Assembly: GCA_001662655.1 (NCBI GenBank)
Contig: KV460217.1
Direction: 5' to 3' (one strand)
Source: Pseudogymnoascus verrucosus
Taxonomy: Eukaryota
Length of the DNA: 64,000 nt
Shown here: in pieces, positions 1,481-64,000 of the stretch
Position numbering within the stretch: position 1 is the first letter of the stretch
Layout: every line of letters starts with the position of its first letter
Notes under the pieces: model-generated
Seen by the model: the letters and a program-made list of their open reading frames with translations, nothing else
The model's database searches: none
What the model was told of the DNA's origin: nothing
Made by a program: the position numbers and the translations under genes

Positions 1481-2365
1481 GCGAGCTGTTATTTATATGC
1501 AATGGGGGAAAGTTAGTTTAGCTCTAATTGGATTAAATGTAGATTAGATTGCATGCCTTCAACCTCCTACCGGAGAATAGAAGAAATATTTCTGATCGTT
1601 GAATTGGCCCCTCACAGCACCGGTAAAACTTTATATGGGAGAATGTTCTATCTTGATGCAACAAGAGCCGTCTCCAAACCCTGACCGAGCCCTTCGACGT
1701 CTGATATAATATGGTTCCTATATTATAGCACGATGGTTAGTGATGGGGTCTGTGGAGAAGCTGGAAACTAAGTTTAGAAATGGCAATGCTCATTTCTGGA
1801 ATCATTGGCGTGCTTCGGCCTCTCCATCTAATGGTATAATGGAAACGTACCCACGAGATTTGGATCCCATTATAGTAATGCATTTCAATCTCGTATACTC
1901 CATCCGCGTTTATTTATTGTGGGATTCTCATTAGGACAGTAGTAGGACTTTGCGTAGCCCGAGACTCGTATACTAAAGGTCAGGCCGTCATAAATCCCAA
2001 ATAGCATCGCAGTTGTTGTTTCGCACGCGTCAGCGTAGCGGGGCAATTGCCATGGTATCAGCACCATGGATGCACTAGTGACACTGCTGTCGGGCCTACA
2101 TGCAACTAGCTCTACCCCGCCGGAGATCTACTCCCCGGATTTTCCCACGCGGGGATTCACTCGCCAAACTCCTTTGGCTCCGCCGTCCCGGGAATTTACT
2201 CCCCGATGCTGTGGTATATCACCTTCTTCTTTCTCATTGGAGGAGTACTTATCGGCACTATTCATTTTACTCCCTATAAGAAGTCATACTTAGAGGATTG
2301 TCTCAGTTCCGTGACCAGTCCATTTATTTGATCTCTTTGCCTAGCATCGCCAAATATCCAGTGCC

Positions 2366-3304
2366 ATGGCCAACTCCAAACCAACCTCGGGAGACTTTAC
2401 AAAAACCCCAACCTGGCTCGACTGGTACGAAGGACCAACCACCCCAGCATTCAAACTCCCCCCCGGAGCCGTCGACTCCCACTGTCACGTCTTCGGTCCG
2501 GGCTCGGAATTCCCATACGCCCCTGAGCGCAAATACACGCCGTGCGACGCATCAAAAGCTCAGCTCTTTGCGGTCCGCGACCACCTCGGTTTTTCCCGCA
2601 ACATCGTCGTGCAAGCAACCTGTCACGGCGCCGACAACAGCGCGCTCATCGATGCCTGTTCCTCCAGCGGCGGGCGCGCCAGAGGAATCGCTACCGTGAA
2701 GCGCAGTGTCTCCGATGCCGAGCTAGCCCAGCTCCATGAGGCCGGTGTGCGCGGCGTACGATTTAACTTCGTCAAGCGGCTGGTGGATTTTACGCCCAAA
2801 GACGAGTTGATGGAGATTGCAACGCGAATTGAGCGGCTTGGCTGGCACGTCGTCATTTACTTTGAAGCACAGGATCTGCCCGAGCTATGGGACTTCTTTA
2901 CCGCGCTGCCGACTACCATTGTAGTGGACCATATGGGACGGCCTGATGTCTCAAAGCCAATTGATGGGCCTGAGTTCTCACTGTTTTGCCGATTCATGCG
3001 CGAGCATCCCAATGTGTGGACGAAGGTTTCCTGTCCAGAACGGCTAACTGTTAATGGGCCGCCAGCGCTAGATGGCGAACGTAGTGCGTACAGAGATGTG
3101 GTGCCATTTGCACGCGCTCTGGTAGAAGAGTTTCCAGATAGGGTTTTATGGGGAACGGACTTCCCACATCCTAACCTCAAGAGCCACATGCCGGATGATG
3201 GCTTATTAGTAGACTTTATACCATGGGTTGCTGTGACTCCTGAATCAAGGCAGAAGTTATTGGTTGATAACCCAATGAGATTGTATTGGCCAGAAGAGAT
3301 TTGA
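2366..3304 (+). CDS. ligI: 2-pyrone-4,6-dicarboxylate lactonase (LigI/PmdD-like amidohydrolase), intronless
   Basis: Motifs DSHCHVFGP, PERKYTPCDA, VVQATCHGADN, GVRGVRFNFVKRLVD, VDHMGRP, KVSCPER, LWGTDFPHPN, MPDDGLLVD and KLLVDNPMRLYW match bacterial PDC hydrolases as I recall them. Confidence 0.92.
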   Translation: MANSKPTSGDFTKTPTWLDWYEGPTTPAFKLPPGAVDSHCHVFGPGSEFPYAPERKYTPCDASKAQLFAVRDHLGFSRNIVVQATCHGADNSALIDACSSSGGRARGIATVKRSVSDAELAQLHEAGVRGVRFNFVKRLVDFTPKDELMEIATRIERLGWHVVIYFEAQDLPELWDFFTALPTTIVVDHMGRPDVSKPIDGPEFSLFCRFMREHPNVWTKVSCPERLTVNGPPALDGERSAYRDVVPFARALVEEFPDRVLWGTDFPHPNLKSHMPDDGLLVDFIPWVAVTPESRQKLLVDNPMRLYWPEEI

Positions 3305-3806: not shown

Positions 3807-6323
3807 TGTTCCGGCCCAACCGTCAGATCGGCCAGCTCGCGAGCTGGCCGGCCCAACCGCGAAGTGGCGGTGTAGAATTGTATCGTAGAAATTGAAATCC
3901 TACCTCCTACCTCCTACAACTATAGTATAGTATAGTAATTATGGCTACTATTACTTCAATTACTCCATTTCCATTTGACGTACGCACTGCTTTTGAGGCC
4001 TATATAAGCAGCCCTACTTACTACAATCGAGAGCAATTCTCACACGAAAAATGGAGCCAAATACACACTATACTCGAGGATCCAGCTGCTTTTATTCCGC
4101 ATAATAAAGAGAGTACAAACCTAAAGCACCATACACTCTCTAGCTTTAAGCTTGTTAATAATAAGCTATATAAGCAGAGTGATAGGCGGAGTGATAAGCA
4201 GCACCTACGAGCTGTAGTTCAAAAGGCTGAGGTGTTTGATGTTATTGCACAAGAGCACCTTAAGCTTCTACACGCAGGTCGGAATAAGGTATGGCCTACT
4301 ATTAAGCAAAAATACTATGGAATAAAGCGAGAGGATGTAGAGTTTATACTTAAACGGTGTAAGAATTGCACTTTGAATAGGCCGAACACTACAAAAGCTC
4401 CCTTAGTTCCTATTATAAGTGGACGGGCGTGGGAGAGGGTTCAAATCGACTTAATTGATATGCGCCACGAGCCTTCAGGGCAGTATAAGTGGATTCTTCA
4501 TATAAAGGATCACTTCTCAAAGTATACACAGCTATACCCATTGAAAAGCAAGCACGCAGAGCCTATTGCAGAGTGCTTTGCTCAATTTATTGCAGCTTTC
4601 CTACCTCCGAAGATTATGCAGGCTGATAATGGGAAGGAATTTAAGGGGGCTCTCTTACTCCTACTACGGAAGTATGGAATACAGGTGGTAAATGGAGCAC
4701 CACGGTCGCCACAAACTCAGGGCCTAGTCGAGCAGGCTAATGGGGTTGTTGAGAATAAGCTCCGGGCATGGAAAATGGATCATGGGTCTACAGAATGGAA
4801 GGATGGGCTATTAGAGGTTACACTTGCTATGAACACCCAAATCCACTCTACAATTGGGTGTGCACCAGCTGAGCTTCTGTTCCGGGAACGGAGCTCATAT
4901 ATCAATTGGCTCGATAGCCAGGCCCGGAAGGATCTAACAATTGGAATTGAGCAGGAGGACCCAGCTATGGGCCCTATTTTCGAGAGCGACCTCCAGTCTG
5001 AGCTTGAGTCCGAGACAGAAGCTCTAATCGACCCACAGCTCCAGCAAGTCCCTGAGCCTAGCTCTAGCTCTGAGCCTGAGCGAGAGCTCGATTCTAGGCT
5101 TCGAGCCCAGCCTAAAAACCGAGCTAGAGCCACAGCCCAGCACCAGCAAGCCCCTAAGCCCAGAATCGAGCACTCTAGCTCAGAGCTCAATTCTGAGCCC
5201 AGCTCTAGCTCTGAGCTCGAGCTAGAGCGAGAGCTCAATTCTGAGCTCTCTCGTCTAGTTCCTACTCGAGCTCAGGCTCGAGTACTGGCTCAAATCCAGG
5301 CTGAGCCAGAGTTCTGTCTTGAGCTCGAGAACTCTAGAGCCCAGCGAGCCCCTGAGCCCAGAATCGAGCTCTCTGGCTTAGGGCTCAGAACTCGAACCAG
5401 AGCTGGCGCTAGAGCCCTGATCCAGCTTGGACCAGAGCTCGGAATTGAGCTCTCTAGCTCTAGCCCTAATTCCGAGCCCAACTCTGGCTCAGAGCTTGAG
5501 CCAGAGCCAGAGCGAGAGCTCAATTCCGAGCCCCGGCGTGGGACCCGGGCCCGAGTTCCAGCTCAGCCTAGAACTGAGCTTCAGGCTACACCTGATCCTA
5601 TAATTGAAAGAGCTATAGCAGCCACTCAACGAGCTAGGATTTCTATGGTGCGGAAGTATACAAAGAAGCATGATATTCAGCACTTTGATATAGGAGCAAT
5701 AGTCTCTATAAAGGTTCCTCGAGAGGATAGAACCTCAACTGATAATAAGAGGCTATTTGCACGGATTCTAGAAGAGCCTTACCCTCATAGGTATCGGATT
5801 CTTACAGCTTCTGGTATTATACAACGCCTTATTCCTACAAAATCACTTGGAGTTGTAGAGCAAGCTCTATGGGCTGATATTATAATTCCTACTTCTACAA
5901 AGCAGGTATCATTAGGGCTTGCAGCTAGAGAGGCGTCTACAAGTGCTCGGGTTGGAATATCCTGTCAGTGTAAAGGGCAGTGTAGTACGAAGAGGTGTAG
6001 GTGTTATAAGGAAGCTAAGGAGTGTAGTGTACACTGCCATAACGATGACCATAACTGTGGTAATTTATCAGGTCTTACTACTCGTACGGAAATAGCTTTA
6101 GTTGAAAGGCCTCGGAAACGAGCACGGGCAGACACTGTTGGAAACGTAGCTATATAGATCAATTGAATACTCTTACTTCTAATTAATTGCTCGCGGTTGG
6201 GCCGGCCAGTATATAACATAACCTAAGAGCGCTTAAAAAAGAGAAATGGTTAGTCGATTCCGAAATCTGCCTTGGGTCTCTCTAAAAAGCCGTATCCTGT
6301 ACCTACAGGGTTGGGCCGGAACA
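3807..6323 (+). mobile_element. Complete Ginger-like (integrase-type) DNA transposon, ~2.5 kb
   Basis: Perfect 15-bp TIR TGTTCCGGCCCAACC (3807-3821) / GGTTGGGCCGGAACA (6309-6323), TGT...ACA ends, and a 4-bp TATA TSD (3803-3806, 6324-6327). A second 19-bp inverted pair lies at 3844-3862 / 6191-6209. A single integrase ORF is present, with no RT, gag or LTR. Confidence 0.9.
3941..6157 (+). CDS. Retroviral-integrase-like DDE transposase (KRBA2/SCAND3/Ginger2-like)
   Basis: HHCC zinc motif (EHLKLLHAG...CKNC), rve core (VQIDLID...KDHFSK...QADNGKEF...QGLVEQAN), low-complexity S/E/P/L linker and C-terminal Cys cluster CQCKGQCSTKRCRC...CSVHCH. The 738-aa ORF is uninterrupted. Confidence 0.9.
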   Translation: MATITSITPFPFDVRTAFEAYISSPTYYNREQFSHEKWSQIHTILEDPAAFIPHNKESTNLKHHTLSSFKLVNNKLYKQSDRRSDKQHLRAVVQKAEVFDVIAQEHLKLLHAGRNKVWPTIKQKYYGIKREDVEFILKRCKNCTLNRPNTTKAPLVPIISGRAWERVQIDLIDMRHEPSGQYKWILHIKDHFSKYTQLYPLKSKHAEPIAECFAQFIAAFLPPKIMQADNGKEFKGALLLLLRKYGIQVVNGAPRSPQTQGLVEQANGVVENKLRAWKMDHGSTEWKDGLLEVTLAMNTQIHSTIGCAPAELLFRERSSYINWLDSQARKDLTIGIEQEDPAMGPIFESDLQSELESETEALIDPQLQQVPEPSSSSEPERELDSRLRAQPKNRARATAQHQQAPKPRIEHSSSELNSEPSSSSELELERELNSELSRLVPTRAQARVLAQIQAEPEFCLELENSRAQRAPEPRIELSGLGLRTRTRAGARALIQLGPELGIELSSSSPNSEPNSGSELEPEPERELNSEPRRGTRARVPAQPRTELQATPDPIIERAIAATQRARISMVRKYTKKHDIQHFDIGAIVSIKVPREDRTSTDNKRLFARILEEPYPHRYRILTASGIIQRLIPTKSLGVVEQALWADIIIPTSTKQVSLGLAAREASTSARVGISCQCKGQCSTKRCRCYKEAKECSVHCHNDDHNCGNLSGLTTRTEIALVERPRKRARADTVGNVAI

Positions 6324-52785: not shown

Positions 52786-52893
52786 TGGGTGACGGGTGGT
52801 GTGTGTCACTGAAATTCTTGTATATACGGATACGTATCAGCAGGACTGTTCTTAAATGCCTAGTATATATATCATTGAAGGCAGATTACAAGC
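52786..52893. repeat. Dispersed direct repeat, copy A (pectin lyase 3' flank)
   Basis: TGGGTGACG...GTGTCACTGAAA...TGTATATACG...TGTTCTYAAATGCCTRGTATATATATCAT...GCARATTACAA; matches 55391-55484. Confidence 0.85.
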
Positions 52894-53301
52894 AACATGG
52901 GTGTGTTGTAGTTGGGGCATACCATTCTACTATCCTGGGTGGTAACTTGTGGCATAGCACTTATATGTAAATCGGCTTTTCTATAAAGGAATAAGTTATA
53001 GTAACTATGGCAGCAGGGAAGTGCGACAGCGACGGTGCTAACTAGGGTTTCGTTCTAACATACATCCTAATTTTGTTGATACTTATATGTTAGAATACTG
53101 TCGAGGTGGGGAATGCTAAAGGAGTGGGACGAGACAACTTGTCGTCAAGCTGCAGAAGGCTAACCATAGCTTAAGTACTGTCCTCTGCAGCTTAGTATTA
53201 TACCACAAAGACGGAGGTTTCGCGGCCCATAGTTGCCATTAAAGTCTAATATTCCTAAATAACCTCTACGTACAGAACTTCTCTCATCTATTGACATTTC
53301 G

Positions 53302-54281: not shown

Positions 54282-55390
54282 TGTTGTAATGATTAGGAGG
54301 CTTGGAATGAGCGAAAGCTTAGCAATTGAATCTTAGGTTGCATAAAAAGACAGTTGTATCAGAGAAATGGATTGGAATGCAAAGATCTGGCATGAGGGAA
54401 TATTAATGGTTTTATATATCTGTAGTATAGAACCCACGGATGACGACGTCGCCGACTACGCCAACCTGGTGCATTCATATCAACGAGTATATTCCTCAAG
54501 CGGAACTTCCCTTGGGACGCGTCCCTCTGTTTGGCCCGCTTTCGTCGCATCTTGATACATTCATTGTCCAGTTATTCGCCCTGGTCAAACTGTCATGCCT
54601 CTGCCAAACGCCGTTTATAAATGCTTACAGTGGGTTTCTCCCATTCGGTTCGCATTCTGTTGCTACACCCCTGTCTCGCACTCGGACTCGCACTCGCACT
54701 CGCACTCGGAGGGCAAAAATAGGTACAAAGTAGCGCAGGATCGGCAACTTGTCACATCTTAGCGCTCGTATTTAGCCCCATGCTTATTTTTCATTGTGCC
54801 TTGCCAAGGAGGTGTACGCGTTCCAGCGAGTTGACAGGGTAAATCTGTGATTTTCTGTACTACAGATGTTATCTTCAGGGCTAGATCCGATAAGCTGCCG
54901 CTCCTAGTTGAGCTCCTATTGGAATTCTATGCGCCCTGACTTATCAGCACAGCCTCATCTTCTCAACTCTGCTTACTATACGTGTATAAGGCTTTGTTAG
55001 CGTACTGTACTATGCTGTACAAAAGCTTCGCACTTGCATTTGTAACGGTTCGGATTTTCAAGAGTTCCGATTTTCCGGTGCCCACGCCACACATACACGT
55101 AACATTAGCGATAGTTTAACACCTCTAACCTCCCTAGCATTCCTTCCCTCCTGACCATGTCTGATATGCATGATAACGGTGGGCAGTCGAGATACTCTTC
55201 CATTAGATCTCACCGAAAGAGCCGGGCGGGATATAAAACGTGTAAGAGGAGTAAGATTACAGCGAGTCCAGTGCATCCGCCCACCTCCTTCTAGTATCTG
55301 TTGTGCGAAATAGTCTCCTTTGGCATTTGGGATGTTTCCCTCACATAGACCTTGGCTTCGCTTCAAGCACTTAAGATTATGGGGTGGAGC

Positions 55391-55484
55391 TGGGTGACGA
55401 GCGTGTCACTGAAAGTCATGTATATACGCAGAAGGGATGTTCTCAAATGCCTGGTATATATATCATCAAAAGCAAATTACAAAC
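55391..55484. repeat. Dispersed direct repeat, copy B
   Basis: Diverged copy of 52786-52893 in the same orientation. Confidence 0.85.
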
Positions 55485-55594
55485 TTCATGGCCATGCTGT
55501 ATTTAGGCAATAAAATATTCTCGTTTCCCTCCATGGTAATTTTATGGCACAGCATTTATTGTATAAAATCGACGAAAACAAAAAGGAAGTAAAA

Positions 55595-55713
55595 ACATAC
55601 AACAGTGGGTATTCGCTGGTGGTCACCCACCCAACTACTAATCCACCGATCTCAAGCTTGTGTATGGCAGAGCGGACGGGATGCCCAATTCTCTTGAGTC
55701 TATGGTCGTATGT
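55595..55713 (-). rRNA. Dispersed 5S rRNA gene
   Basis: Minus strand reads ACATACGACCATAG...GCATCCCGTCCGCTCTGCC...AGTAGTTGGGTGGGTGACCACCAGCGAATACCCACTGTTGTATGT (119 nt), followed by a T-run Pol III terminator. Confidence 0.96.
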
Positions 55714-55786: not shown

Positions 55787-58185
55787 CTATTCGAGGATAT
55801 CCGTCGTCCAAACCCTATTTTCTTCATTCCCGTCCAGAGTATCGTCCGGAATAGAGGAGCATATAAGCGATACATCAACCACCCCAGGTTCCACAGAATC
55901 TGGGTTAATTGCTCGCCGAATCTGTGCAACAACCTCGGTGATTTTCGACACGTCCAAGTGTACCCAGCTCCACATCTGAAATACTTTGAGAGAGTCTGCG
56001 GACATGTCAGCTTGAAGCGAAAAGCTATAGAAAAGACAGTCGAGCTCACCTTGGAGTATGCGCGCGATCTGCCACCAACGCGCAAAGTTCTCCAGTGAAA
56101 TACTCAGCAGATCGAGGGCGTTATCGATCCTTGTAGCTACTTCCGAATTGCCGTCGTCGGTAAAAGACATTTTGTGAATGGTCAACCCACAGTGCGCATG
56201 CCATATCGCACAGCTTATCACAGGATCCGCAACAGCGAAGTATTCCGATTCCCAATGGTGGAAAACACCTGCGAGATCCTCCGCATAAGTAATACTGCTT
56301 TGCCAGCAGCTGAGGGAGTCCCCTGTTATTCTATGTGCTTGTTCAGTGCCTAAGGTTCTCACTGGCTCGTTGATTATCAAGTGTGCGCTAGTACACGTTA
56401 GTTGCTGCCATCTTGCTAGGAATTGCACTTACGTGTGAAACATAATTATCGTTTCGAGTCTATGTCTGTGGGAATGAAACTGCTCTGATGGACGCTTAGC
56501 GGCATTGAAGTACCAGGCTGGTAAAGCGAGACGCATGCATGAAAATGTGTTTCTGAGAGCCATCATACGAGCAATTTCCTCTGGCGTTGAGTTTGCATAG
56601 AGGCGCTGCTGGCATTGAGATACGCCCCGAAGTAGTGACACGGCGAGAAGGTGGATATTAAATCCATCTCCGGGATCAAGAGACTGCATTTCTCGGACTG
56701 CCCTCCATGATTTGGCTGAGTCGGTGTCCAAAAGCGTCCCGGTGGACTGTTTTGTAATTCCATTCGTAAAATCTGCAACTGTTGTCGAAACCAGCGCGGA
56801 GCCAATTGTATGGCAATCTATTCCAAATGGCATTACGGCGGTAACATTGATCGTTGAATCCAATTTCCATATTGCCCACCATACAAATCTCCATTCTTCT
56901 CGATCCGCATCGGACAAGCCACACGAGTTTCCCTTAATATCAATCTGATGAAGTCGACTAGCAAGAGACAGTCGCACAGCATTTCCGACATACATCCATG
57001 CCTTACGGCCGGGATAATTGGTATACTCATGGATAGCCAATAGACATGCGGTTTTAATATCATCTAGACATATTGCGCTGTTTTCTTCAAGCCTATTATG
57101 GGACTGTTGGTGTGCAAGCTTTGCAAAATTCTCCCATGGTGTAGAGAACTTCCCAAAGACTCGAAAAACATCAGACGTCGGGACAAATCTCGACGACATA
57201 GCAAACATGGCGTTGAGAAGGCTTTCGGGGATTTGGTTTTCGTGAAACCTTTGGTGGAACATAGGCTTGCGGAACATGGGGAAGATGGGTTGAATATGAT
57301 CGAAGTATAGACAGATACTGAAAATATATTAACATAACCCGCAACATTAGGGTTTGTTACATACAGAAGCTGTTTGGAATCTTCAGCTAATGTGCTAGCA
57401 GAAAACAATGTTGACGCACTAATGACTGGCGACATGACTGGTTGTTCAACAGAAAAAGGTGGACTATCTTCGGTCCTAACAGGGTTGCCTTCGAGAGATG
57501 GCGAAAACTGTAACAGTGATTCCATGTTCGTCACTGCCTGCAATGGGCCGTTGCTGTTTGGGCCCAGGATGGGGTATGTGAAGTTCTGCTGCTCATAGCC
57601 CTGCAAAAAATCGACGGCGAGTGGATTATGGTATGCTAGCGGTTGCATTTCGGAATCTTGCGTGTAATAACCTGGTATGGCATTCTGTCCCGATGCTAAT
57701 TGGCCATGGAGGCCTTGTAATAAGCCTTCAAGATGATCTTCCAACTATAATTAATGCCAAATCATCAGAGTCAGGAATGAACTGACTAACTCAATCTGAA
57801 TGACATATCTCTCGTCTTCGAGGATACCGAACCTTTAGCAGGACCAGGCCGTCTCTTTTTACCCTCGTATTGGCAGGTATAACCACTCGTTCGGCACCTT
57901 GAGCATGTCGGCCGTTCGAGGTTGCCTATATAAGCATGAGCAGTCTAAACAGTGTTACATCGGGAGTATACCGTACATTTTCTTTTCAATCTAAATAAAG
58001 GGACACTATGTCAGCATTACGAATCTGTAACAAGTCGAGTTCCATTACCTCTTGCAGTTGCTACACACCCGGTATTTTGAGGCACTATCTTCCTCTCCAC
58101 GATTCAAATTGCCAGAGCTTCTTGTACTCGTAGTCGATGTCGTGTCTCGCAAAGCTGAAGGGCTGAGGTCTTGTTGACTGTACAT
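55787..58185 (-). CDS. Zn(II)2Cys6 transcription factor with fungal-specific TF domain
   Basis: Spliced CSNCKR|LKRK|CNLERPTCSRCRTSGYTC uses a 14-nt micro-exon (57977-57990). Middle domain AWMYVGNAVRL...LHQID...REEWRFVWWAIWKLD. ATG at 58185. Confidence 0.85.
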
Positions 58186-58512
58186 TTGCAGATATCTGGT
58201 TTGGATAATAAGGGTCTAAGTTGATTAATATGAGAGGATAGATAATAGATGGTGGGAGTGGCGTACATTTTGTACGATTTGAAAGAAGGTGGAGAAGCAA
58301 AGTCCACTAGTGCGGGGTGTGGAGGATGGGCCCGCCCCCAATACTTCCGTACTCAAGTGCTAATGTCTAACTTTTCCTAGTTGAGATAATACCCTAGATT
58401 ATGCTGGGGGATCCACAAAAATGAAATTCATTAATACAAGAGGAGCCTCATAGACTTTTCGGGTCTACTAAATATGGAAACTTTTCATCATTATTATCTT
58501 CTATGGGAATAA

Positions 58513-59621
58513 TTATTGCGTTCCTTCTTTCTCAAACACAATAGTATTTCTTAGAACTCCAATTGGCTTCACTTCCACCTCGACTACGTCTCCATCCTTG
58601 AGAGGACATTTGGGGTTCTGGAACCAGCCTACACCTGCTGGCGTACCGGTCATAATAGCCGTGCCCGCAGGAATCGTCGTACCTGTCCGATGAAGTTTTG
58701 TTAGCTTATCTGTGCCCTTTAATATAGAGAAAAACATTGAAGCCACTCACCTTGCGACAAGAAGCTTAACAATTCGTCTACTGGGAAGATAAAATCAAAC
58801 GGGCTATCCTGAACCACCTTTCCATTCACTCTTGTCGTAATCCTGCGGTTCTGGTCGGGACTAAATACTGAGGGGTGTACAAGTCTTGGTCCCAATGGGC
58901 CGAATTTATCGAACCCCTTAGCGTACGTGTACTGACCACCAGAAGTGCGCTGGAAAACCCTTGCCGTGAGGTCGTTTCCGATGGTGTATCCAAGGATGTA
59001 TGACATGGCCTTTGAAGCTGGGACAGATCTTATGGAGTCGCGGAGAACGACGGTGAGTTCGCCCTGTTGTGAAGAGGGATATGTAAGCAATCGCCAGGGC
59101 AAGAACAGTAACTAAAATGCAGTGAGACATGAATTTACCTCGAAATCAGGGAAGGAGCGGTGGGCTTGTGGAGGGAAGCTGATGGATGTGTTGTGGTCTG
59201 CGAGAGCAGCGGCTGGTTTGTACCACATTGGCGGGTCTTCTGGAATTGGTATCTTTGGATTAATTACGTCAGTTTTGCTAATTTATGAGATATAGGGCAG
59301 TGAAAGACGAACCGAGGCTTCGTTTGCATGGTTTCTGTAGTTCAAGCCAACGCAGATAATTGGAATACCTGTGGTAGGAACTGGTGCTAAAAGCTATACA
59401 CAAGCGTTAATAAGTTACAATGATTTGAATTGCGTATCTGTGAGGGATCATACATTTTTGACCGTCACCTCCGCAAAAACACCATCCGACTCGAGTGCCT
59501 CAATGCTGGCATATCCCTTCACCTTCAAACCTGAAGCTGCTGTTTCATCTAGAGAAAGTGCCGCCCAGTGTTCGCCGCCTTCTACAGCTGTAAAGCGAAT
59601 AATACTGTCCCAATGAGCCAT
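58513..59621 (-). CDS. Fumarylacetoacetate hydrolase (FAH) superfamily protein
   Basis: [67 protein letters not shown]; four introns. Confidence 0.9.
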
Positions 59622-60333
59622 GGTTAATATATGATTGAATGATACTGGAATGCTTTGATTTTTCGACTTCACCTCAGACTCCATATAACATATATATAAT
59701 CATCCTCTAAAACAACCTTAGGAAACATAGCTAGCCATGTCTACACTAGGCAGTCGCAAGTTCTACATTAAGCGCAAAATAATCATTATCTTGTTGCGGA
59801 CTAATCTCTGCGTTCTATGCGGACAAATTTGAGGGATGCCCATCTCAGAGTGCCTGTGCTTTCATGGACCACCTTGCCGGGCTCAAAACGGCTAGACTAT
59901 AAAGTGAACTTTGGTAGAGTGGGGCTAGTGGGGAATTATTAGCATCTGCGCAGGATATTCGGCAACGTGCGGAGTATTTGATGCGCGGGGCATTTGAATA
60001 TGCATGTGCGGAGTAAATAGATATGCCGCCTCCGCCTCCGCATGTACCTATTGGGCATCTATTGCAGGGACAATACGTCGGGGATTTGTGAAGCTCACCA
60101 AAGATGGAGATCCACAAGGAAGACTTGTAGAGCTTGCCACGTGAGGAAAGATCAAAGAGCTCGTTCGAGCTAGCTATTTGCACTTTCCTAATCCGATCCC
60201 CTAATCCGATTCACTAGGCCTTGAATCCTCGAAGGCTGCGACGCAAACCCCAAGGGATTGAACAAGGCGCTACATTTTCAACAAAAAATGTATATCATGA
60301 TTATGTATTTGGTCTGCAATGATCATAATATAA

Positions 60334-61409
60334 CTATTCTGCTACTCCTTTCTCTGGTCTAACAGGTCCCCAAATATACATAGACGCGGCACCTTCACTC
60401 TTTGTTCTCCCAGTAACATTGTCAATATTAACTACATCCCCATCTGCATAATGCTCAATCGTGAACCCTGTTGGATCTCTCCAATAATCGAAAATCTGCG
60501 AGCCCAGGATATGTCTTCCAACGCCCCAGACCGGAGTATAGCCTTTGCTGAGTAGGAAGTCGTGGCCTAGAAGTTGTGTATCAAAGTCTTCCACCTCGAA
60601 TGAGCAATGGTGGAGGCGATGCTTATCAGGGAAATTTGCTGGCGCGCGAAACAAGAACAACGTATGGTGATCGCTGTACTCTTTGGCGTGATCCAGGTGC
60701 ATGAAGGTTAGAGTATCAATTTCTTCGCCATTGACCTCTTCGTATAGAATGTCCGAGGGGACAAAGTTGAAATTGAGAGTATAGAAGGCAATATCCTCGT
60801 CGAACATGGACGTGATGAAGCCGTAATGGCCGAGCTTATGAACCATAGCCGGGCCGAGTTTGAATCTCTGGAATTCGCCTACAAAGTTAGCCTCTATTTC
60901 GAAATCCTTATGACACAACGCAAACATATACCTTTTCTGGACTTCTGCAGAGTAGTATTATACGCTCCTTTGTGAATTTCCGTGCTAGTGGCAACCTTTG
61001 TTGGCGCTGGACGTTCTCCATTACCCCAGAGAACATGAATCTTAGAGGACGATGGAGACTCGATAGTCACGATTTTGCCACCACCTGGGCCGAGATTTGG
61101 CCTCACTTCTGACGCCCCCTTCAACTTTGATGATTTTATAAAATCCTCTTCTGTCTGAGCAATAAAAGCAGCACCTTCAAAGCGCTTCTGTCCATCTTTA
61201 CTCTTGATGGCTACATACGCACAAGAGTCTTTTCCCCAGCCACGGTAGTATATGATATCTTTGTCTCGCCCTGCTTCCTCAAATCCAAAATCTTTCGCGA
61301 ATTGGTCGAATTTTTCGAGGTCAGGATGTGCAAGATAGACGTGGCTGAGGCGGTTGAGTTGGATCTTGTCTGGCGAGTTGATGACAGGTGGAATACGTCC
61401 TGGTAGCAT
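60334..61409 (-). CDS. VOC/glyoxalase-fold extradiol ring-cleavage dioxygenase (trihydroxytoluene oxygenase-like)
   Basis: RLSHVYLAHPDL, VHKLGHYG, FMHLD, DHHTLF, HHCSFEVED, WGVGRHILGSQIFDYWRDPTGFTIEHYADGD (His/His/Glu metal ligands); one intron ~60879-60931. Confidence 0.88.
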
Positions 61410-61915
61410 CTTGAATATAGTATGTCACTAAATTGAAGAATGATGAGGAGATAATATCTGAGGTGTATTAGAGTGATACTAGCTTGAATGTCGAAGATTG
61501 CAGTAGTATTTTGATACAGTAGAATAACGGAAGATTATGGTGGATAGTATTCAATAAACTCTAACCTTCCTCTAAATGATCTCTTATCTGTTGAATTCAT
61601 TTCACCATTTGCTATCCTGCATAATTAGTAAATTGTGAGTTTTAGCTTCCACCTAATTACTCCGCGGGACGTATGGGGAAGCGGAACATCTTTTGGATAG
61701 CTTCTCCGCTGAGTGGTGGTGTATGGTAACCCCTCGTCCCACAAAAATACGGAACAGAAAATTAACGAGCACATGCAGATGCGGTGGTGTTGAATCCAAC
61801 ATGCAAGGGTCCATGTAATAAGCTTCCCCGCAATCTGTCTCTTTATATTATTTTGAGTCTTCACTTTTCTCCAGAGAGATTGCAGAAAGCTAAGACGACT
61901 AAACAGTAGCTAATC

Positions 61916-64000
61916 ATGGAAGAAGCAACTATATTGATTATTGGGGCTGGACCAAGTGGTCTTGCTCTGGGGACACTTCTTGCTCGTATGAATCTCAAGG
62001 TACTCTAAAAATTGGGACCTTTTAGAGCTTAAATTAACAGATTTCCAGGTCGTCATTTTGGAGAAAGATATAGAAATCTGTGAAGATCCTCGCGGCATTG
62101 TTATAAATGGAGATGCAGTTCGCATCTCATACCAAATTGGCATTGGTGAAGGACTGACGACGAGAATTGGCAAGGGTAAGCAAGACATATACTTGAGATG
62201 ACCCCAGTAAGTATTTCATCTGACTTGCATTGAAGATATTGGTGTTCTTCACTTTCATAGTGGCAACTTCAGGCAACGCACGTTCATGAACTATGACTTG
62301 ACAATCGACTGGGCCGAACAAGGAGTTTCCAACAACATCGCCCAGTTTCAGCCAAATTTCGGTAAGTTAGCGACTTTCTGTAGTCATCTTGCATTTCTAA
62401 TAATATTGTTAGAGCGAGAGATCAGAAGTGTGATCAAAGACCTACCATGTTGCGATCTTAGACCAGGTTGCGAAGTCATAAGCAGGGACGAAGGTAAAGA
62501 CACCACCGTGGTTGAGTACATAACACAAGATGGAAGTAAGAAATCTATCAAGACGTCGTGGCTCGTTGGGGCAGATGGAAAGCGCGGTGTGGTAAGGAAG
62601 AAGTTCCTGGAACCGGAAGGCATCAAACAAATTGATCGCCTGTAAGTCGGCAAAATGACAACATCTTTTCGAGATCGCCACTAACATCAATTGCTGACAG
62701 GTGGACCTATGTTGGAACATGGGTCGCGGCGAACCTCAAAATAACAACACCAACACCGAAGACGCACCCAGATTTTCCGCTATGGCAGCTTGGATATACA
62801 CCAGAGCAAGTGCATGATATATTTTGGCCAAGCGGCTTCCAGTAAGTCTCAGTCTATTGTATTGTTGTTATGGAGACTAACTATACTTCTAACACCAGCT
62901 TCTGCAATAATCCTAAGAGACCGGCAGTTAGTGGAAGATTCGGACCGGCTGGGGCTCAGTTCTGGAGGTATGAAAAATTGTCAGAATACCTCTATCCACG
63001 AGCTAACATCACATTAGGCACGAATTCTCAATTGAGCCTAACGATAATCTAGATAACATAGAAGATAATTTTTGGAAGCAATTCGGCACGTGGATGATAG
63101 TGCCAGGGTCAAAATTTTCACAGAAACTTGGAGATACTACAATCGAATTTCCCAGGGATTGTATAGACCTCATCCGCTGCCGGCCATTTCAGTATGCTTT
63201 CACATACATCCATTTCTTAGATTAATTGCTAATTCCAAATTAGATTTGCTTCAAAAGTCGTCAATAGGTGGTATTGTCGGAAAACTATGTTGATCGGCGA
63301 CGCTGCTCACGTCTTCCCACCATTTGGTGGCCAAGGGATTGCCACTGGTATACGAGACGCCCAAGCCTTGAGTTGGCGACTTGCCATCATGTCCAACCTG
63401 CAGGTTTCTCGTGAAACACGGGAACGGATCCTCACAGGGTGGAGTCAAGAGAGACTCCACGCCTGGGATGCGGCCACTTTATCAACAAAATTGAATGGTA
63501 GCATTGTCAACCAACGTTCATTAATCAAAGGACTTTTTTACCGGTTTTTTATGCGAATCCTGTGGTCTGTACCTGGGTTTGCGCATTTCCGCACGAAGGC
63601 GGCATTCCGAGACAAGCTCATATATAATACTCAGAGTTGCCCTGGTGGCTTCTTCCTGGAATCTGCAGGAGGTGGCCGCAAGGTCGCGCAGATCTGGGTT
63701 CGAAGACCAGGACCAGGCCATAAACCGACGCTTTCCGACAGGGTTTTTCTTCGCAACCTATCTCATCTTTCGATTCTAGTCCTTGTCAGAAAGCCTGAAG
63801 ATATTGATCCTGCCGGAATCGAAGAGGTGCTGCAAGTGTCAAAATTATCCGAGCAAGTCTTGACTATGCAGGATATTACATACTTATACCTAAACAGCAC
63901 TCAACAGCCTCTGTACGAGAATGATGAACATATATACTACCCGTGCAAGGTAGATGAGTTGACTGTTGAAGGGATAACACCAATTAGGGGCTACCACGAA
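61916..64000 (+). CDS. FAD-dependent aromatic hydroxylase (MhpA-like); 3' end beyond the window
   Basis: IIGAGPSG Rossmann motif, EDPRGI, WLVGADGKRGVVRK, IGDAAHVFPPFGGQGIATGIRDA; many introns. Confidence 0.88.

Follow-up and report, generated by a model that had tools for sequence, protein, structure and literature searches.

The downstream end of a 64,000-nt stretch of Pseudogymnoascus verrucosus DNA (contig KV460217.1; hereafter, the window, corresponding to G000:C12:372001-436000 of a 30-Mb fungal assembly) carries a cluster of four genes, encoding a Zn2Cys6 transcription factor (TF1), a fumarylacetoacetate-hydrolase-family protein (FAH1), a VOC-fold enzyme resembling type I extradiol dioxygenases (VOC1) and a flavoprotein aromatic hydroxylase (FMO1). 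The cluster is real, intact and conserved, and is probably catabolic. We consider it highly probable that the cluster specifies a route of hydroxylation, extradiol ring cleavage and FAH-type hydrolysis. That it forms a self-regulated catabolic module for a substituted resorcinol-type phenol, degraded via a resorcinol/hydroxyquinol-type intermediate, is the more specific reading toward which we lean. Probably, the cluster serves detoxification as well. Its components are as follows:

55787..58185, minus strand: TF1, Zn2Cys6 transcription factor; 696 aa, 7 exons, stop-free spliced model with Zn_clus and Fungal_trans domains
58513..59621, minus strand: FAH1, fumarylacetoacetate-hydrolase-family protein (HpcE/FAHD2/acylpyruvase type); 281 aa, 5 exons, FAA_hydrolase domain
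59622..60333, no strand assigned: FAH1 promoter region; four GCGGA(G/C)WWW sites at 59796, 59819, 59969 and 60008
60334..61409, minus strand: VOC1, predicted two-domain type I extradiol dioxygenase (from alignment, fold and residues); 340 aa, 2 exons
61410..61915, no strand assigned: VOC1/FMO1 divergent promoter; 506 bp, with GCGGA-type sites
61655-61665, minus strand: GCGGA-type site GCGGAGTAATT within the VOC1/FMO1 promoter
61916..64000, plus strand: FMO1, single-component flavoprotein aromatic hydroxylase (MhpA-like); 613 aa, 8 exons, FAD_binding_3 domain

Database relatives closest to proteins of the window carry the label Pseudogymnoascus. All gene models were spliced at GT-AG introns and checked by hand. 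They agree with the original prediction, made from the letters of the window, of four contiguous intron-containing genes: none of the neighboring models contains an internal stop after splicing, and a Pfam scan returned domain matches consistent with the family of each. The divergent arrangement proposed for the dioxygenase and hydroxylase genes, across roughly 500 bp, was likewise recovered, with start codons 506 bp apart. TF1 runs from an ATG at 58185 to a stop at 55787, its last intron being in frame and hence optional; the protein combines a full C-x2-C-x6-C-x6-C-x2-C-x6-C motif, spread across three exons, with a middle homology region, i.e., the features that define the Zn2Cys6 class. The VOC1 model is identical letter for letter to database protein P0001 and the FMO1 model equals P0121, the FMO1 stop codon lying 135 bases beyond the window end. 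A search of the 30-Mb genome found only three loci of the VOC1 family. As a flavin hydroxylase lies within ~10 kb at three of three such loci, and an FAH gene also at two of them, chance grouping of the cluster genes is unlikely.

The assignment of VOC1 as an extradiol enzyme, already made in the original prediction, is supported by a full set of six active-site residues. VOC1 can be aligned with BphC, XylE and LapB, whereby H177, H250 and E301 fall on the metal-ligand positions of BphC (1han), i.e., the 2-His-1-carboxylate triad of the C-terminal domain, and H231, H282 and Y291 on its second-sphere positions. Across 60 of 60 aligned full-length fungal relatives, none of the six varies. The AlphaFold model (pLDDT 93) adopts a two-domain VOC fold, and the top matches listed by Foldseek for this model were all two-domain VOC proteins, nearly all of them extradiol dioxygenases (E 1e-21 to 1e-16, 14-20% identity; TM ~0.7 against catechol 2,3-dioxygenases), with 3b59, an uncharacterized Mn-bound glyoxalase-family protein, as the best. 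VOC1 shares its fold, its division into two domains and all six active-site residues with XylE, BphC, LapB and HpcD, yet is only 15-20% identical to them, and Pfam returned only Glyoxalase. Fold and residues together identify VOC1 as a predicted type I extradiol dioxygenase without a named specificity. Among 2,655 candidate relatives, 2,630 matched VOC1 at E <= 1e-10, some of which carry the automatic names trihydroxytoluene oxygenase (including the fungal P0097, 54% identical to VOC1) or metapyrocatechase 2. In a midpoint-rooted tree of 48 rows, built without an approximately unbiased (AU) test and from a chosen subset that retained 33 of 85 bacterial rows and 12 named fungal ones, a single branch (SH-aLRT 98) set 15 of 15 fungal rows apart, next to three alphaproteobacterial proteins. 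This topology fits one old acquisition, the direction of transfer not being given by the tree.

FMO1 displays the class A hydroxylase motifs GxGxxG, DG and GD (positions 10, 163 and 334). Its last exon, the only one scanned, scored best, if weakly, on the MhpA-like NCBIfam model PRK06183 (80 bits against a cut-off of 390), and its nearest solved structures are polyketide oxygenases, all of them weak matches. In FAH1, the motifs H-x-x-E, E-G-E, N-D and K are found at 74, 119, 150, 168 and 236, which presumably represent the metal-binding E-x-E, D and K and the lid H-x-x-E; by its PDB relatives, the protein groups with HpcE/FAHD-type proteins.

In the scheme that these assignments suggest, TF1 would sense the substrate and activate FAH1, VOC1 and FMO1 via GCGGA(G/C)WWW sites. 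FMO1, using FAD, NAD(P)H and O2, would add a third hydroxyl group to yield a substituted hydroxyquinol (2,3,5-trihydroxy-R-benzene), and VOC1, as an Fe(II) extradiol dioxygenase, would open the ring next to the substituent to give a 2,4,6-trioxo acid. This product would be an acylpyruvate that FAH1 could split in one hydrolytic step, releasing either R-COOH and acetylpyruvate or a beta-keto acid and pyruvate. We saw no semialdehyde dehydrogenase, MhpC-type hydrolase, hydratase or aldolase in the cluster core. The proposed scheme would explain this, since a resorcinol-derived triol gives an acylpyruvate cleavable by a single FAH enzyme, and additional enzymes such as a catechol meta pathway requires would be unneeded.

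Co-conservation of the genes, on which the original prediction was staked, was found among both fungal neighbors and bacterial loci. Relatives of VOC1 and FMO1 are neighbors in 12 named fungi, which were selected on visual inspection of accessions or locus tags and represent a list of positives rather than a rate. Adjacent pairs occur in Helicocarpus griseus, Aspergillus nanangensis, A. lucknowensis, A. nidulans, Penicillium griseofulvum, Coccidioides posadasii, C. immitis, Podospora didyma and Rhinocladiella mackenziei; in Colletotrichum orchidophilum, Cercophora newfieldiana and Neonectria ditissima, the numbers of the two differ by two to four. The pairs thereby also cover Onygenales and Sordariales. 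The A. nidulans proteins AN10883 and AN7065 are 69% and 62% identical to VOC1 and FMO1, respectively. In P. griseofulvum, a TF (KXG48292, 47% identical to TF1), a VOC protein (KXG48294) and an FMO (KXG48295) bracket KXG48293, which we infer to be the FAH, giving the gene order of the window. Among 79 metagenome loci, 29 were judged fungal-like and 14 of those span at least 10 kb; by tblastn, nine of these long loci contain an FAH gene, six an FMO gene, six both and four a related TF. Two metagenome loci, L014 and L015, hold orthologs of all three enzymes (57-70% identity) in changed order. Of the best 80 among 596 bacterial loci, 57 have an FAH gene and 28 both an FAH and an MhpA-like FMO gene within 8 kb, and in five of 23 Pfam-scanned bacterial loci an acyl-CoA synthetase lies downstream, which fits release of R-COOH. 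Co-conservation across distant taxa, a criterion for a fungal catabolic gene cluster, is thus observed, and the module is common, not rare, in filamentous ascomycetes. Predicted VOC-FMO fusions of 979-999 aa (P0126, P0137, P0138 and P0298; Fonsecaea, Podospora and Coniochaeta) may be annotation merges; one such record in A. nidulans was later divided.

As a separate observation, the bacterial loci L105, L111, L131 and L132 group VOC1 relatives with an HpaB-type hydroxylase, a flavin reductase, an FAH gene and, often, an RraA-like aldolase, suggestive of a pathway for another substrate that looks uncharacterized.

The suggestion that the cluster continues past the window also held: besides the end of FMO1, a second module follows directly downstream.

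G000:C12 436787-448296 (L006:3787 to L007:5296), no strand assigned: second module, past the window

It comprises FMO2, an Abhydrolase_3 esterase, a second Zn2Cys6 factor (TF2), VOC2 and an MFS transporter. FMO2 is intronless, 536 aa long and MhpA-like (PRK06183, 352 bits against a cut-off of 390); its matches are ~17 fungal-looking proteins followed by bacterial ones at 33-37%, several of the latter auto-labeled resorcinol 4-hydroxylase. VOC2 is 38% identical to VOC1. TF2 and VOC2 each contain a one-base frameshift, at which contigs of run X1, possibly the source of the assembly, show no gap. An X2 contig across TF2 and VOC2 is two letters longer and an X6 contig across VOC2 one letter longer, in a comparison of length differences only, without display of gap positions; this fits intact copies in relatives, and the loss may be recent. 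Between the esterase and TF2 sits a ~260-bp multicopy repeat (L173:4943-5200), skipped in the X6 contig, that matched neither a tRNA nor an Rfam family.

The second module and the four-gene cluster have a promoter motif in common. GCGGA(G/C)WWW occurs nine times within the combined promoters of the two modules (4,466 bp) versus six times in the other 96.5 kb, and the longer form GCGGAGTAWWT has 69 sites in the genome, of which four lie on the 592-kb contig C12, four of four in cluster promoters. CGG-type sites suit Zn2Cys6 factors, and the GCGGA(G/C)WWW sites may be bound by TF1.

Clues to the substrate came from paralogous and orthologous loci. The genome holds two further loci of the FMO family:

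G000:C4 865-878 kb (L010-L011), no strand assigned: C4 twin locus; FMO, TF, intact VOC and FAH genes
G000:C3 286-298 kb (L012-L013), no strand assigned: C3 twin locus; FMO, TF, an intradiol enzyme and an iron-alcohol-dehydrogenase-family gene

Between C3 and C4, the hydroxylases are 65-83% and the TFs 68% identical. The best solved relatives of the C3 intradiol enzyme are hydroxyquinol 1,2-dioxygenases, and the accompanying iron-alcohol-dehydrogenase-family gene can be read as a maleylacetate reductase. The simplest reading of these swapped ring-cleavage pairs is that the FMO family makes hydroxyquinol-type triols, which would be opened by intradiol or extradiol cleavage. A second clue concerns stilbenes. 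Upon stilbene cleavage, resveratrol gives 3,5-dihydroxybenzaldehyde. In one metagenome locus (L015:11764-20845), the orthologous trio abuts genes for a lignostilbene-dioxygenase-like protein (E 8e-210), a P450 and a VAO-like oxidase; the first and last of these match the sco-vao pairing of model 3 in the accessible portion of bioRxiv 343673. The stilbene-dioxygenase-like gene of P. verrucosus itself is on C30, adjoining another FAH gene and an aldehyde dehydrogenase gene. There, aldehyde dehydrogenase, FAH, MFS and stilbene-dioxygenase-like genes lie together (L174-L175, G000:C30 57.8-66.3 kb) in what is a probable stilbene catabolic cluster in its own right. The paralogous C3/C4 loci and the one stilbene-cleavage neighbor thus lend indirect support to a resorcinol-type substrate. 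The short list of candidates comprises 3,5-dihydroxybenzaldehyde or 3,5-dihydroxybenzoate (from stilbenes), orcinol or alkylresorcinols, and 2,4-dihydroxyphenylpropionate (from coumarins).

Comparable chemistry operates in bacteria. DntB/DntD/DntG of dinitrotoluene-degrading Burkholderia and the orcinol pathway of Pseudomonas putida proceed via a trihydroxytoluene intermediate, extradiol cleavage and FAH-family hydrolysis; the tie of VOC1 to the DntD subfamily comes solely from the automatic names of its relatives. Among the sources accessible to us, the nearest characterized analog appears to be HcdABC of Pseudomonas mandelii 7HK4 (PMC6222606, in its available text), with enzymes of the same families: a class A flavin hydroxylase, a type I extradiol dioxygenase and an FAH-family hydrolase. 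There, a substituted resorcinol is converted to a 2,3,5-trihydroxy compound, followed by meta cleavage and hydrolysis, with succinate and acetylpyruvate as proposed end products. HcdABC differs in being a bacterial operon, and the likeness is drawn by description only; HcdB is perhaps smaller, judging from reported bands of 62, 31 and 20 kDa, of which 31 kDa is HcdC. The Fde/Ifc flavonoid meta pathways, as far as described in the accessible part of PMC11069340, similarly use a FAD monooxygenase on a resorcinol- or phloroglucinol-type A ring and cleavage by a glyoxalase-family dioxygenase but, compared by description, need cupins and other enzymes missing from the cluster.

In fungi, the logic of hydroxylase, ring cleavage and FAH is already known from the gallate/1,2,3,5-tetrahydroxybenzene pathway of Aspergillus, which also employs a flavin monooxygenase, a ring-cleaving step and an FAH-like protein, the genes often being grouped with those for MFS and TF proteins in ascomycetes (PMC10832562, accessible text). 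The ring-cleaving candidate of that pathway is a DUF3500 protein, whereas the cluster described here has a VOC enzyme; no DUF3500 gene was among the scanned open reading frames (ORFs) of the window and beyond. The same accessible text mentions neither VOC, glyoxalase nor extradiol, and reports ATEG_01257, a 33% relative of FMO1, as not induced on gallate. From what is available of it, a 2025 survey (PMC12420386) describes extradiol cleavage as poorly characterized in fungi and large fungal VOC clades as lacking a reference enzyme. In the accessible part of FAMeDB 2026 (PMC13094099), three rows have a VOC domain, all of them 4-hydroxyphenylpyruvate dioxygenases (HPPD), and neither AN10883 nor AN7065 is included. 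VOC or extradiol enzymes go unmentioned in the available text of bioRxiv 184242 and 2020.07.23.217166. A VOC-FAH cluster in the stilbene-cluster papers was considered and rejected, VOC, glyoxalase and extradiol occurring in neither main text, while supplements may list such groups. One fungal gene annotated as trihydroxytoluene oxygenase, by annotation alone, appears in the accessible part of PMC5716253. Within the accessible literature, which mostly excludes subscription journals and preprint supplements, we found no characterized fungal member, nor any characterization of AN10883, AN7065, Afu7g06950/60 or ATEG_01257. The original statement that the cluster could not be matched to a characterized fungal one stands within that coverage, the gallate pathway sharing its logic and not its ring-cleaving enzyme.

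Several observations weigh against the resorcinol reading or parts of it. FMO1 is only ~30% identical to the C3/C4 hydroxylases and 23-28% identical to proteins labeled resorcinol 4-hydroxylase, so the substrate class does not carry over directly. L014 has no stilbene-cleavage neighbor, leaving one of two orthologous long loci with one, and no TF1 relative was found in either L014 or L015. By tblastn, an FAH gene is missing from five and an FMO gene from eight of the 14 long fungal-like metagenome loci, and 23 of the best 80 bacterial loci have neither. Some bacterial VOC loci carry an HpaB-type hydroxylase and an aldolase instead, which argues that the VOC family serves several substrates. 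The promoter motif was defined post hoc, after inspection of these promoters, and is not enriched in L014, L015 or L023. VOC1 reached the cut-off of none of the named NCBIfam dioxygenase families (41-52 bits for the XylE, BphC and HpaD models, against cut-offs of 320-366). Finally, the FAH family also contains decarboxylases and isomerases, and the nearest structures of FAH1 comprise C-C hydrolases as well as enzymes of the decarboxylase/isomerase kind.

The most serious alternative, though one we think unlikely, is that the same three reactions act on a monophenol, such as 3-hydroxyphenylpropionate or a hydroxycinnamate, an alkylphenol or a flavonoid ring, via a catechol intermediate. FAH1 would then serve as a hydrolase or a decarboxylase, and the remaining steps would be encoded elsewhere. 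The best NCBIfam scores of FMO1 and FMO2, both to MhpA-like families, are in line with such a route, as are homologs automatically named 3-(3-hydroxyphenyl)propionate hydroxylase, the alpha/beta hydrolase of the second module and, going by the accessible text of bioRxiv 2023.09.18.558247, naringenin breakdown in P. rubens via intermediates that resemble those in the fde meta pathway of bacteria. However, neither the core nor L014/L015 contains a hydratase, aldolase or aldehyde dehydrogenase, the neighboring hydrolase is an Abhydrolase_3 protein of esterase type, and the Variovorax VOC loci, considered as fde/ifc clusters, were rejected as such on gene content. The esterase and second module also fall outside the cover of X3 contigs, a hole that by itself proves little.

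Still less probable is that the genes belong to a biosynthetic pathway and serve in tailoring or self-protection, a polyketide made elsewhere being hydroxylated and its ring opened oxidatively. The fungal luciferin cycle offers a precedent, in that a hydroxylase and a ring-opening oxygenase work there alongside a caffeoylpyruvate hydrolase of the FAH family (Cph, which the accessible part of FAMeDB, PMC13094099, includes). The polyketide oxygenases nearest to FMO1 among solved structures, weak as these matches are, would fit this picture, as would an NRPS-like gene 5 kb from a distant VOC locus (L047). Against it, none of the 31 ketosynthase matches of the genome is on contig C12, which also speaks against a neighboring polyketide synthase (PKS), a concern raised in the original prediction. 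Long ORFs of the window and of the 37 kb that follow it included no backbone enzyme (PKS, nonribosomal peptide synthetase (NRPS) or terpene synthase), NRPS and terpene synthases being examined via long-ORF scans only, and none was seen in L014, L015 or L023. Moreover, the bacterial contexts are catabolic, and the trio is kept while its flanks differ between fungi. Least probable of all, VOC1 might be another VOC-fold enzyme (an isomerase, a lyase or an HPPD-like protein) in a pathway that modifies a phenolic without ring opening, as its Glyoxalase-only Pfam result, the 3b59 match and its low identity to characterized extradiol enzymes would allow, but the extradiol-specific second-sphere residues are invariant and the VOC protein is constantly paired with a hydroxylase and a C-C hydrolase.

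Returning to the favored catabolic module on a resorcinol-type phenol, a broader version can be put forward tentatively: an as yet undescribed central fungal pathway, acquired once from bacteria, for type I extradiol cleavage of substituted hydroxyquinols derived from the resorcinol units of stilbenes and alkylresorcinols, with VOC and FAH swappable for an intradiol pair. If true, the cluster described here would be the type locus of a pathway now present across Leotiomycetes, Eurotiomycetes, Sordariomycetes and Dothideomycetes. Its substrates would come from the resorcinol half of stilbene phytoalexins as well as from lichen or fungal alkylresorcinols, and the VOC-FAH plug-in could replace an intradiol dioxygenase and maleylacetate reductase behind the same hydroxylase and regulator. 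What the cluster offers in any event is a full candidate pathway with a regulator, a putative binding motif and orthologs in the model fungus A. nidulans (AN10883 and AN7065). With the substrate narrowed to a short list, simple work on gene deletion and enzyme activity could address whether a bacterial-type meta pathway operates in fungi, a matter that bears on fungal disposal of plant defense phenolics and on lignin and stilbene valorization. The surprise is moderate, since VOC1-type proteins are common and already auto-annotated.

The left flank of the cluster consists of a 5S rRNA gene, an RTA1 gene and a pectate lyase gene.

55594..55713, minus strand: dispersed 5S rRNA gene (Rfam RF00001, 74.2 bits), outside the pathway

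By eye, the stretch at ~55370-55560 resembles that at ~52790-52980, the two flanking the RTA1 gene. Near the other end of the window, a single ORF (2345-3301, plus strand) encodes a LigI-like 2-pyrone-4,6-dicarboxylate hydrolase (E 1e-107 to LigI, 4d8l); it is flanked by an MFS gene on one side and by a retroelement ORF with an integrase (3926-6154) on the other, and looks to be of bacterial origin. The original prediction had counted it as a second meta-cleavage-related locus: the gene is real, but it is 52 kb from the four-gene cluster and nothing connects the two. Past the second module and outside the cluster, at ~452-453.5 kb of G000:C12 (L007:8949 to L008:502), an ORF combines a delta-endotoxin N-terminal domain (PF03945) with a following jacalin-like lectin domain.

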